Below the pieces are notes generated by a model. That model did not search any database. It was not told where the DNA came from and was given only the letters and a program-made list of their open reading frames with translations. A stretch of DNA of 42,873 nucleotides from a virus (Duplodnaviria > Heunggongvirae > Uroviricota > Caudoviricetes): the IMG/VR virus record IMGVR_UViG_2897369580_000001; one strand, given 5' to 3'. A program made the translations under genes and the position numbers. Positions 39,414 through 41,464 of the stretch are shown here, piece by piece (within the stretch, counting starts at the first letter, position 1; each line of letters begins with the position of its first letter).

Positions 39414-39979
39414 GCACTGCTATCGCTATTGCAAAAGAATATGCCAGTCTGATTGACCTGTTAGAAACCGCCGATGAACTGACGCCAGAGATGATCGCCG
39501 ACACGCTTGAAGGCATGGAAGGAGAACTGGGAGACAAACTGGACGCCATGATGGTCATCTGCCGTAATTTACAGGGCAATGCCAATACCTGCGCTGAAGA
39601 AATGTCTCGCCTGGCAACCCGTAAGACGTCCTTTGAAGGCAAGGAAAAAGCAATTCGAAAGCATATGCTCACCTGCCTGCAAGCTGCTGGCCTGGATAAA
39701 CTGAAAACCGCAAAAAACACATTTACTGATGCACAGGGGGCTATCCGGGTAATTATCGATAGCAAAGATAAGATCCCGGATGAGTATGAGGGCGTGTCAC
39801 TTGTTGATGTAGAAACGGTTATTACACCAAACAAGCGAGCCATTAAAGAAGTGATTGAATCTGCGGAGGCGGTTGCCGCCGAAATACTGGCGCGTGGAGA
39901 AACACCACCAGCCGAGTTATTAAACCCGGTACCAGGCGCACATCTGGAACGCGGCGAACGGTCACTGAGGATACGCTAA
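39410..39979 (+). CDS. Gp157-like protein (Sipho_Gp157 family candidate)
   Basis: 189 aa overlapping stop of upstream gene; family call from memory. Confidence 0.4.
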   Translation: MSTAIAIAKEYASLIDLLETADELTPEMIADTLEGMEGELGDKLDAMMVICRNLQGNANTCAEEMSRLATRKTSFEGKEKAIRKHMLTCLQAAGLDKLKTAKNTFTDAQGAIRVIIDSKDKIPDEYEGVSLVDVETVITPNKRAIKEVIESAEAVAAEILARGETPPAELLNPVPGAHLERGERSLRIR

Positions 39980-40045
39980 TGCTTAAACTCACATTAAAGC
40001 GTGGTGACGCGGTTCTGAAGTGGTCAACAAAAACTGGCCACCGAG

Positions 40046-40864
40046 TTAGAGTTTTTTCCAGTATCGATTTTCCGATTCGTTTGGTGGTAACCCACCATTA
40101 TATTCGTGCGGTCTTAGTGCGCTGTAATATCCAACGATATAGTCCGTTATTGCGTGAGCTGCATCGCTGAAGCTTACATAGCCCGTCGCCGGCACCCATT
40201 CGTTCTTCAGACTCCTGAAGAAGCGCTCCATTGGGCTGTTATCCCAGCAGTTTCCACGCCGACTCATACTCTGCCTGATCCGGTATCTCCACAGTAACTG
40301 CCGGAACTGCCTGCTCGTATAATGACTGCCTTGATCGCTGTGGAACATCACCCCGACGGGCTTACCACGGGTTTCCCATGCCATTTCCAGTGCTTTCATG
40401 GTAAGCCTGCTGTCCGGCGAGAACGACATGGCCCAGCCCACTGGTTTTCTTGCGAACAGGTCGAGAACAACGGCGAGGTACGCCCAGCGCTTACCCGTCC
40501 AGATATAGGTCACATCACCGCACCACACCTGATTTGGCTCGGTCACGGCGAACTGCCGTTCAAGGTAGTTAGGGATAGCAACATGTTCATGACCACCACG
40601 TTTATACCGGTAAGTCGGCTGCTGACAGCTGACCAGCCCCAGCTCTTTCATGAGTCTGCCAGCAAGCCAGCGCCCCATCTGGTAGCCTCTCTGGGTTGCC
40701 ATTGTGGCGATGCTTCTTGCTCCGGCAGAGCCGTGGCTGATGCCATGCAGTTCAAGTACCTGGCTGCGTAATACAGCCCGTCTGCCGTCTGGCTTTTCAG
40801 GACGGTTTTTCCAGTATTTGTAGCTGCTGCGATGGACCCCGAACACATGGCAGAGAGTGGCCAC
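40046..40864 (-). CDS. IS911 transposase OrfB (DDE catalytic domain); made as OrfAB by -1 frameshift
   Basis: IS3-family DDE transposase sequence; slippery AAAAAAG on minus strand at 40936..40942. Confidence 0.9.
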
Positions 40865-40890
40865 AGGATAACGCGCCCTGAGTTTCCCGA

Positions 40891-41193
40891 TTATCGAGAA
40901 CTGTTCAGGGAGTCTGACATCAAGAGCGCGGTAGCCTTTTTTAATATTTCATTTTCCATTTCAATACGTTGTAGCTTTTTCCTGAGCTCACGGATTTCAA
41001 TTTGTTCCGGGGTAATAGGGGAGGCTTTTGGTGTTTTTCCCTGCCGCTCATCACGTAATTGTTTCACCCATCGCGTCATTGTGGAAAGGCCGACATCCAT
41101 AGCGCTGGCTGCATCTGCCACGGTGTAATTCTGGTCAACGACCAGTTGAGCGGATTCGCGTTTAAACTCTGCGCTGAAATTTCTTTTTTTCAT
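40891..41193 (-). CDS. IS911 transposase OrfA (HTH, leucine zipper)
   Basis: [21 protein letters not shown]...[31 protein letters not shown] matches IS911 OrfA. Confidence 0.9.
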
Positions 41194-41464
41194 TATGGCA
41201 CCTGTGTTGTTCTGAGGTGAGCATATCACCTCTGTTCAGGTGGCCAAATTCAGTAAACCACTTCAGTTCACCTGGTACTTGCCGATGGTACCAATGGCAT
41301 TATTGAAGCACGGAGCCGCTGCGAACTTGGGCTACACCTGCCAGAAAACATTAAGGTCACTCGGGAGAAATCGGCATTCACCCCACAAGAACTGATTACG
41401 CCTAATCAGAAATAAAAACTCACCATCGCTAGCATTGCGATTCACCAGACACCGGAGGATCACA

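Follow-up and report, generated by a model that had tools for sequence, protein, structure and literature searches.

In a prophage of Escherichia coli ATCC BAA-2469, an insertion sequence (IS) lies within a small open reading frame (ORF) between the recombination genes and the excisionase (xis) and integrase (int) genes. The locus raises the questions of what the element is, when it arrived, whether the ORF was a real gene, and what the prophage would have lost. We analyzed a stretch of 42,873 nucleotides (the window), which exactly matches the reverse complement of positions 2088923..2131795 of the BAA-2469 chromosome. Its last bases are the integrase stop codon, and a tRNA-Leu adjoins it in the genome. 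By coincidence, uvrY is three genes away from the prophage; its product activates the sRNAs CsrB and CsrC. We hold with high confidence that ISEc52 inserted recently into codon 12/13 of a conserved early-left gene of a ZF40-like prophage, duplicating GTTC and creating a null allele.

Anatomy of the Inserted Element

The element, its genes, and the duplicated target were delimited as follows.

40016..41265, minus strand: complete ISEc52, IS3 family, 1250 bp, with IRR on the 40016 side and IRL on the 41265 side
41193..40891, minus strand: orfA, 100 aa, HTH_Tnp_1 (Pfam E 7e-14)
40046..40941, minus strand: orfB frame with the rve/DDE integrase core (Pfam), from the frameshift site to the stop codon at 40046-40048
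40936..40942, minus strand: A6G heptamer for programmed -1 frameshifting from orfA to orfB (sequence read)
40012..40015, no strand: left copy of the target-site duplication GTTC (sequence read; overlap of BLAST blocks with JJ1887)
41266..41269, no strand: right copy of GTTC (same evidence)

An IS3-type element was recognized by a length of ~1.2-1.5 kb, terminal inverted repeats (TIRs) of the form 5'-TG...CA-3', an HTH-containing orfA with a DDE/rve orfB, and a target duplication of ~3-4 bp. The stretch 40016..41265 has the size, the TIRs, the orfA/orfB pair with A6G, and the short duplication. The element ends are TGAAGTGG...CCACTTCA, and the TIRs are imperfect, matching at ~23 of the first 36 positions. 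The orfB product matched rve (Pfam E 1e-31) and rve_3 (E 3e-11). The A6G heptamer was read in the overlap of orfA and orfB, exactly where the original prediction had placed it, and the -1 fusion product OrfAB comprises 382 aa. That prediction had described a 1249-bp IS911 copy; an intact IS3-family element with inverted repeats and orfA/orfB is indeed present, with a length of 1250 bp.

The Element Is ISEc52

By sequence comparison, the element is ISEc52 and not IS911 proper, an assignment that rests on database-annotated copies and PGAP names and not on ISfinder reference sequences. The DNA is 97.2-100% identical to ISEc52-annotated copies, versus 94.2% to an IS911-annotated copy of Shigella dysenteriae; for OrfAB, the corresponding values are 99.2% and 96.8%. 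The left-end tip, TGAAGTGGTTTACTG, is of the ISEc52 type, whereas the IS911 counterpart reads ...GGCACACTG in place of the GGTTTACTG of the window copy. PGAP names the element 'IS3-like element ISEc52 family transposase'. The resemblance to S. dysenteriae IS911 is nevertheless close, as the two share their length, organization, and the frameshift site with its position; the right-end repeats are nearly identical, and the OrfA proteins are 99% identical.

ISEc52 (IS3 family, IS3 group; NCBI PGAP name) shares with the window copy the length of 1250 bp, the terminal repeats, and the orfA/orfB pair joined by A6G. The two differ at a site ~40 bp from the right end, where A5 stands in ISEc52 and A6 in the window copy; the OrfAB of the window is consequently seven residues shorter (382 versus 389 aa). 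The A6 variant was also found on plasmid NZ_CP029421.1 and in the copy of strain Ec55. The window copy is flanked by a duplication of 4 bp, whereas three other copies examined have 3 bp. Direct repeats of IS3/IS150/IS911-type elements measure ~2-4 bp (PMC3299598).

A Recent Insertion After Lysogeny

Comparison with uninterrupted alleles, which the original prediction had called for, dated the event. At least 449 complete genomes of E. coli contain the empty site, represented by the 747-bp join of the two flanks, mostly at 100% identity (matches covering ≥80% of the joined flanks were counted). Both junctions occurred in BAA-2469 only, one of 5426 genomes. Strain JJ1887 carries the prophage at the same tRNA-Leu site, and in 41.6 kb the two copies differ by a single 1-bp indel, without any mismatch; aligned with the JJ1887 copy, the window fell into two blocks that overlap by exactly 4 bp, GTTC. 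Because the insertion is unique to BAA-2469 and the empty site is widespread, the insertion is recent and later than lysogeny, in agreement with the earlier proposal that it followed prophage formation.

The element would have transposed by copy-out/paste-in via a minicircle, the established route of IS3/IS911-type elements, for which IS911 is the model. The ISEc52 variant is intact and, as the insertion itself shows, evidently still active; the 100% identical copies in strain Ec55 and on plasmid NZ_CP029421.1 are a further sign of mobility. The event is an ordinary IS-mediated gene disruption, and insertions in prophage genes are commonplace.

The Interrupted ORF Is a Conserved Gene

The interrupted gene consists of two fragments.

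39979..40015, plus strand: 5' fragment, codons 1-12 plus 1 nt (sequence read)
41270..41415, plus strand: 3' fragment, codons 13-60 plus the TAA stop codon, without a start codon of its own

Taking out the IS and one GTTC joins 39979..40015 to 41270..41415 and yields MLKLTLKRGDAVHLVLADGTNGIIEARSRCELGLHLPENIKVTREKSAFTPQELITPNQK followed by the stop codon, a product of 60 aa that is identical to WP_000916334.1, an annotated CDS in intact prophages. The 60-codon ORF expected upon removal of the IS was thereby recovered. The duplication had been given as 3-4 bp; GTTC does flank the element on both sides, and only the removal of 4 bp restores the frame, whereas removal of 3 bp fails. The stop codon occupies 41413-41415, so the ORF end previously placed at 41414 was slightly off. 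In its present state, the 5' fragment continues into IS sequence, giving a chimeric ORF of 63 aa (39979..40170). The gene in BAA-2469 would thus be a null allele, since 12 native codons are left, fused to IS-derived sequence.

The restored protein matched phrog_2482 with E 2e-36, its residues 1-60 aligning with profile positions 1-61. The 56 homologues found measure 56-67 aa and come from Escherichia, Salmonella, Citrobacter, Klebsiella, Raoultella, Enterobacter, Serratia, and others; the isolated phages ZF40 and BUCT708/709 also encode homologues. The dN/dS of the family is ~0.06-0.4, with synonymous sites saturated. A lack of uninterrupted homologues and of conservation would have spoken against the original prediction; these homologues and the low dN/dS are the opposite.

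There is next to no chance that the 60-codon ORF is fortuitous and that the IS landed in intergenic DNA. The ORF is short, and PGAP left the split gene in BAA-2469 unmarked, without a pseudogene flag, as a chance ORF would lead one to expect. Against this stand the annotated CDS in intact prophages, the homologues of near-constant length in many genera with their low dN/dS, and the full-length profile match. In addition, a Shine-Dalgarno-like GAGGA lies 5' of the ORF, and its ATG shares 1 nt with the TAA of the preceding gene (TAATG). On these comparisons, the interrupted ORF is a real, conserved gene.

Genomic Neighborhood and Kinship with ZF40

The genes around the insertion are as follows.

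39410..39979, plus strand: Gp157-family gene (Siphovirus Gp157; PF05565 E 9e-29), phrog_253 'Mu Gam-like end protection' (E 1e-46)
41465..41689, plus strand: second small early-left ORF, 74 aa, phrog_27062, intact
41625..41888, plus strand: DUF4224 protein, presumed excisionase, intact, downstream of the insertion (PF13986 E 1e-14; annotation)
41857..42873, plus strand: tyrosine integrase WP_001531780.1, intact (annotation)

These assignments bear out the description of the split ORF as a small early-left gene between the recombination genes and xis/int. The gene order was constant among related loci: cI, two small ORFs, an exonuclease of ~700 aa (YdfE_N / phrog_2489), Gp157, and the phrog_2482 gene. 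On the 3' side of the latter, there was often one small ORF, then a variable xis (DUF4224, Exc, or HTH_17) and int. The gene followed exonuclease and Gp157 in all 14 loci inspected, and a related-locus search with the family alignment gave five species-representative genomes. The phrog_2482 gene travels with the RecE-like exonuclease/Gp157 module, without preference for a type of xis/int.

Pectobacterium phage ZF40 has the identical order of exonuclease gp07, Gp157-like gp06, gp05, gp04, excisionase, and integrase. Its gp05, a phrog_2482 member, is 43% identical to the restored protein and differs from the window allele in that the latter is split by the IS. The phage of the window is a ZF40-like temperate myovirus prophage.

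The small protein is predicted to be all-beta, and its C-terminal LIxxNQK tail is strongly conserved. From gene order and conservation, our best guess is that it serves as an accessory factor of the recombination/end-processing module, docking to a partner through this tail; the searches brought up no characterized homologue. A role in anti-phage defense was considered and rejected, as PADLOC gave no matches for the small protein or its neighbors.

Fold of the Small Protein

The original prediction had noted a loose resemblance to CsrA/RsmA. In its full form, this would make the gene product a highly diverged RNA-binding protein of the CsrA/RsmA fold, an intertwined dimer that binds GGA via beta1/beta5, which we consider improbable. 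Of the Pfam families, only CsrA matched the restored protein at E<1 (13.1 bits, E 0.097). The alignment is gapless and in register and spans positions 1-45 of the 53-position profile; across the family, 17 of 28 members matched CsrA at E≤10 (best E 9e-4). The restored protein and CsrA/RsmA (PF02599) have similar lengths (60 versus 61 aa) and weak, gapless similarity in residues 1-14 and 32-46. Against an alignment of 65 CsrA sequences from the PDB and IMG/VR, which was also used for hhalign, the in-register column score reached z 4.1 (p ~8e-5 by column shuffles) and exceeded the score at every other offset, in a post hoc comparison; a CsrA HMM scored E. coli-like members above shuffled controls (p ~1e-3). 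A search with E. coli CsrA as the query returned near-identical CsrAs only and contributed little to a diverse profile. Five short strands, predicted at 2-6, 11-15, 21-25, 30-34, and 41-45, would lie near those of CsrA. L2, L4, G9, P37, V42, and R44 are in common. Mutagenesis has assigned RNA binding by CsrA to L2, L4, R6/R7, V40, V42, R44, and I47 of beta1/beta5, with L4 and R44 essential. The E. coli-like members have L2, L4, K7, I/V40, V42, and R44, and the family has L at the position of R6 and S or G at that of I47. Some phages do carry canonical csrA genes, as seen in 364 IMG/VR contigs and in PHROGs families 9500 and 8397, and csrA was reported in 30 of 2517 phage genomes (PMC7366521).

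The Pfam score of the restored protein is, however, half the gathering cut-off (27), and the best member, with ~20 bits, is also below it. The family HMM found no CsrA in the PDB or among 1.84 billion representative proteins. The hhalign comparison gave P 0.012-0.03 in local and 0.27 in global mode, with a probability <4%. NCBIfam had no match at E≤1; phrog_2482 is separate from the CsrA-like PHROGs families, to which the restored protein had no match at E≤1 either; and an exhaustive survey of CsrA in phages by PSI-BLAST does not include ZF40. No CsrA signal came from the five most divergent members, and the Serratia clade has other residues in place of L4 and R44. The best-conserved features of the family, namely the PDG turn, R29, and the LIxxNQK tail, have no CsrA counterpart. 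In the AlphaFold monomer model (pLDDT 83), which could be wrong if the protein is an obligate intertwined oligomer, the small protein appears to lack the C-terminal helix of CsrA, and structure searches found no match between the two. An unrelated all-beta repeat, that of the surface protein Bap, also matched with equally borderline strength, which shows that such matches are not specific. After Pfam searches with 38 members, NCBIfam, PHROGs, family HMMs, hhalign, and shuffle-calibrated scores, CsrA homology was rejected as unproven, since the signals were borderline and non-specific only. By sequence, the small protein is not a demonstrable CsrA homologue. Slightly less probable still is the proposal that phrog_2482 is an extremely diverged CsrA-fold RNA-binding protein, expressed by ZF40-like temperate phages from their early-left operon and tuning host or phage translation. 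Were either reading true, the IS would have inactivated a post-transcriptional regulator encoded by the phage, and the BAA-2469 prophage would be a natural knock-out.

The Bap match itself suggests a free-standing Ig-like domain or half beta-sandwich of the surface-adhesin type (Bap C-repeat, Rib, Big) that would act as a protein-binding adaptor, which we regard as unlikely, if somewhat less so than a CsrA fold. The 56-sequence HMM matched 7dm0_A, the C-region of Staphylococcus aureus Bap, with E 1e-6 over the whole chain, and 6m3a_A with E 0.04; family positions 8-41 aligned to the Bap segment PNSTVKLTFPDGTTATGTADDQGNYTIDIPSNVD. Foldseek with the AlphaFold model likewise listed 7dm0_A (probability 0.72, TM 0.49) and 6m3a. 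The element in common is a hairpin of the 'xVxVxFPDGTxxT' kind, and the same hairpin drew in long repeat proteins in the representative-protein search. The E value of 1e-6 is, however, the sum over two identical repeats, a single one scoring 14.9 bits with an independent E of 0.22. The Ig-like families of Pfam gave no match, and a beta-hairpin with a PDG turn can be convergent. An AbrB/MazE/SpoVT assignment, taken from the UniRef entry name of one member (P0173), was discarded: Pfam SpoVT_AbrB was not matched at E≤10 by any of 38 members, hhalign against AbrB/Abh/SpoVT gave P 0.17, and the PDB search returned no match.

Possible Effect on Excision

Within the early-left operon, the IS has an antisense orientation and precedes xis (DUF4224) and int. 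From this position, it may weaken the transcription that reaches xis-int from the early-left promoter, and excision would be reduced. The integrase gene may have a promoter of its own, which would counter such a polar effect. A promoter scan found no sigma-70-like site within 39300-42000, and a consensus scan of the plus strand inside the IS found one weak terminator-like hairpin at 40082-40097 and no strong terminator.

Strain Ec55, unrelated to BAA-2469, contains an independent, sequence-identical ISEc52 in the 74-aa ORF, at AAG 41585-41587, with a 3-bp duplication (AAG). It lies 318 bp downstream of the BAA-2469 site in empty-site coordinates and has the same orientation. Two independent insertions of identical elements, both upstream of intact xis and int, could mean that insertion in this interval is selected or targeted, cutting early-left read-through and locking the prophage. 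We judge this doubtful: the insertions concern two of ~450 prophage carriers, and the IS has no strong predicted plus-strand terminator. Moreover, ~8 copies per genome, 450 genomes, and an 800-bp interval in 5 Mb give a rough upper bound of ~0.6 chance co-occurrences, so that by this estimate the clustering is not significant. The comparison covers the stretch of the prophage from Gp157 to xis.

Implications

By itself, the insertion is of little importance, as it concerns one strain with a public, annotated genome. Its annotation can be improved, since PGAP leaves the split gene in BAA-2469 unmarked, and the strain possibly harbors a prophage with impaired excision. The disrupted gene provides a natural null allele of the conserved, uncharacterized ZF40 gp05 family. 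Both this allele and the possible change in excision could be compared with the many ST131 lysogens whose allele is intact.

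Identity and Boundaries of the Inserted Element

The IS insertion in the early-left region was confirmed by reading the sequence from 39700 to 41700, together with a scripted check. The element spans 1250 bp (40016..41265), has imperfect terminal repeats (TGAAGTGG... at one end and ...CCACTTCA at the other), and is directly abutted by GTTC on both sides (40012-40015 and 41266-41269). It contains the following features:

41193..40891, minus strand: orfA, 100 aa, Pfam HTH_Tnp_1 (E = 7e-14)
40936..40942, minus strand: A6G heptamer, inside the element
to the stop at 40046, minus strand: orfB, Pfam rve (E = 1e-31)

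A -1 slip at the A6G heptamer yields an OrfAB fusion transposase of 382 aa. Deletion of the element and one GTTC, joining 39979..40015 to 41270..41415, restores a 60-codon ORF, MLKLTLKRGDAVHLVLADGTNGIIEARSRCELGLHLPENIKVTREKSAFTPQELITPNQK. A scripted check showed that the frame is restored by a 4-bp duplication, but not by a 3-bp one. The original prediction of an IS with orfA/orfB and a slippery site at 40936..40942 was thereby upheld, with its length corrected from 1249 bp; the proposed GTTC duplication of 3-4 bp is exactly 4 bp, and the 60-codon ORF was recovered with a slightly different end.

The element had been named IS911, with which it shares its organization and frameshift site. An IS911-annotated copy from a Shigella dysenteriae plasmid is 94.2% identical in DNA and 96.8% in OrfAB, and differs in its left-end tip (TGAAGTGGCACACTG). 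In comparison, an ISEc52-annotated copy from the plasmid pJEF1-OXA-181 shows 97.2% DNA and 99.2% OrfAB identity and has the same left-end tip as the window copy (TGAAGTGGTTTACTG). The element is thus ISEc52, with IS911 as a near miss. PGAP labels the window copy, and others almost identical to it, "IS3-like element ISEc52 family transposase". Near its right end (40016-40060), the window copy has A6, whereas the pJEF1 ISEc52 and the S. dysenteriae IS911 have A5; the extra A accounts for 1250 rather than 1249 bp and shortens OrfAB by 7 residues, ending in …RYWKKL*. Since copies with 100% identity occur in strain Ec55 and on plasmid NZ_CP029421.1, the A6 variant is evidently mobile and seems competent for transposition. 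The duplications of three other inspected copies are 3 bp (GTA, ATC, and AAG), and lengths of about 2-4 bp have been published for elements of the IS3/IS150/IS911 type (PMC3299598); the 4-bp GTTC is a less common length, yet within the norm.

Source Genome and Timing of the Insertion

The window is the exact reverse complement of positions 2088923..2131795 in E. coli ATCC BAA-2469 (NZ_CP158435.1). The prophage of ~42 kb, with lambda-like head, P2-like tail, and ZF40-like early genes, lies between yecA/tyrP and tRNA-Leu/Cys/Gly-pgsA-uvrC-uvrY. A search with the 747-bp flank join (≥80% length) found the empty site in 449 complete E. coli genomes, with 100% identity in almost every case. Many of these are ST131 strains, and the intact ORF is annotated in the matching genomes as the hypothetical protein WP_000916334.1. 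Of 5426 genomes searched with junction queries, BAA-2469 is the only one with both the left and the right junction. The prophage of E. coli JJ1887, which has the empty site, aligns to the window with 0 mismatches, in blocks that overlap by the 4-bp GTTC. The single other difference is a homopolymer at 27729-27736 (C8 in the window, C7 in JJ1887), which may reflect a sequencing artefact or a tract prone to slippage. Therefore, the insertion is recent and strain-specific, and entered a prophage already resident, as had been proposed.

The BLAST comparison with JJ1887 also revealed, as cross-matches, two 78-bp direct repeats (25923-26000 and 29345-29422; about 90% identical). They bracket a 3.4-kb segment with one hypothetical gene and one of the LprI (lysozyme inhibitor) family, and the segment may therefore be a cargo or moron cassette.

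Conservation and Neighborhood of the Interrupted Gene

Homologues of 56-67 aa were found in Escherichia, Salmonella, Citrobacter, Klebsiella/Raoultella, Enterobacter, Yokenella, Cedecea, Kluyvera, Serratia, and Rosenbergiella, with dN/dS values of 0.06-0.4 between pairs and synonymous sites saturated. The gene's start codon shares a base with the upstream stop codon (TAATG) and lies behind a GAGGA. The restored protein aligns from end to end with phrog_2482, a PHROGs family labeled "unknown function" (E = 2e-36). Among phage proteins, it shares 43% identity with Pectobacterium phage ZF40 gp05 and 69% with a protein found in BUCT708 and BUCT709. Across 56 members, M1, L2, G9, D18-G19, G22, I24, R29, P37, and a C-terminal L-I-x-x-N-Q-K tail are (nearly) invariant. 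The interrupted gene is genuine and conserved.

In every locus inspected, the gene follows a cI-type repressor, two small ORFs, a ~700-aa exonuclease (Pfam YdfE_N, weak Exonuc_VIII, phrog_2489), and a Gp157-family protein (phrog_253, labeled "Mu Gam-like end protection"). Downstream, there is usually one more small ORF, then an excisionase, which may be of the DUF4224, Exc, or HTH_17 type, and an integrase. The constant upstream neighbors and variable excisionase therefore indicate that the gene moves together with the exonuclease/Gp157 module and is not tied to any one xis/int pair. In the window, the protein upstream of Gp157 (37197-39413; 738 aa) is "hypothetical" in PGAP. It matches phrog_2489 "exonuclease" with 1318 bits and exodeoxyribonuclease VIII/RecE weakly (NCBIfam E = 2e-12, residues 233-336), and its relatives have the Pfam YdfE_N domain.

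Relationship to CsrA

The original prediction had also noted a resemblance of the restored protein to CsrA/RsmA. Pfam CsrA was the sole family with E < 1 (13.1 bits, E = 0.097), in a gapless, in-register alignment over positions 1-45, but the score is half of the gathering threshold. At E ≤ 10, CsrA matched 17 of 28 members (best E = 9e-4); the five most divergent members gave no CsrA signal, and L4 and R44 are replaced in some of the most divergent ones, notably in the Serratia clade. The in-register column score against a 65-sequence CsrA alignment of PDB-verified and IMG/VR sequences was 4.1 SD over column shuffles, and the CsrA HMM gave p of about 1e-3 on E. coli-like members relative to shuffled sequences. 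However, hhalign of the family against CsrA yielded P values of 0.012-0.03 (local) and 0.27 (global), with a probability <4%. Family HMMs retrieved no CsrA from the PDB or from 1.84 billion representative proteins, among which the only 17 hits were family members or motif-level repeat proteins. NCBIfam produced zero matches for the restored protein, and the CsrA-like PHROGs families 9500 and 8397 were matched by E. coli CsrA, but not by the restored protein. A PSI-BLAST survey for CsrA homologues in phages, run to convergence, has no entry for ZF40 (PMC7366521).

The AlphaFold2 model (pLDDT 83) places five predicted strands at CsrA-like positions; a monomer model is a poor fold test, because CsrA is an interleaved dimer. 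Moreover, CsrA has nothing that corresponds to the most strongly conserved features of the family, and the family protein lacks the C-terminal helix of CsrA. Specificity was checked with the 56-sequence family HMM, which was equally borderline against the S. aureus Bap C-repeat, an unrelated all-beta module, with 14.9 bits per repeat and a whole-chain E of 1e-6 arising only from summing two identical repeats. Foldseek with the AlphaFold2 model also listed the Bap structure 7dm0_A (probability 0.72). We conclude that the protein is a small all-beta domain, and that its hairpin motifs account for the weak similarity to several beta-rich families. Homology to CsrA is not established, and we regard it as improbable. 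The earlier reading was right on the insertion and its timing, slightly wrong on the IS name, and unsupported on CsrA.

At least 364 IMG/VR viral contigs encode canonical CsrA homologues, which share 73-96% identity with the E. coli protein; csrA is therefore common on phages, but that family is separate from the interrupted gene. The prophage lies beside tRNA-Leu/Cys/Gly, three genes from uvrY. The product of uvrY, a response regulator, activates the sRNAs CsrB and CsrC. Given the weak CsrA case, this proximity looks like a coincidence.

A Second ISEc52 Insertion Nearby

Strain Ec55 (NZ_CP059130.1; 4619-5868 of the extracted locus) carries a second ISEc52, with 0 mismatches over 1250 bp and in the same orientation. 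It lies 318 bp downstream of the window insertion point, is flanked by a 3-bp AAG duplication (window-equivalent 41585-41587), and interrupts phrog_27062, the small ORF that comes next, whereas the 60-codon gene is unbroken in this strain; it is an independent event. Two ISEc52 hits in one short stretch might reflect target preference or selection for cutting read-through into xis-int, a tentative reading at best, as only 2 events occur in about 450 carriers, the clustering is not significant, and the count covers the Gp157-xis stretch only.

Within this second small early-left ORF, 41550-41581 is 100% identical to a 32-nt CRISPR spacer of E. coli SCU-171 (1501-1532 of the extracted array). 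The array is type I-E and adjoins cas2e/cas1e-iap, with the spacer third from the cas2 end in SCU-171. The spacer is also carried by E. coli MS1679, STE15, HCM-28C-2, GPEC1165, and FCI1, and probably by about 50 more. The bases at the PAM position are CTG on the crRNA-sense strand, versus the canonical AAG.

Consequences of the Insertion

As had been predicted, a small gene between the recombination genes and xis/int is interrupted. The break falls after codon 12. The reading frame of the 5' part continues into the IS, forming a chimeric ORF of 63 aa, and the 3' part has no start codon. The downstream xis (DUF4224) and int are both intact. The IS is antisense within the early-left transcription unit. 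Transcription that starts at the early-left promoter would thus reach xis/int only after passing through 1.25 kb of foreign sequence, which could lower excision. A consensus scan found a weak terminator-like hairpin alone on the plus strand inside the IS (40082-40097), and no promoter-like sites, which makes a polar effect on xis/int plausible at most.

The insertion is an ordinary event of an already understood kind, in a public genome. Its lasting value lies in a natural null allele of a conserved, uncharacterised gene of the ZF40 gp05 family.
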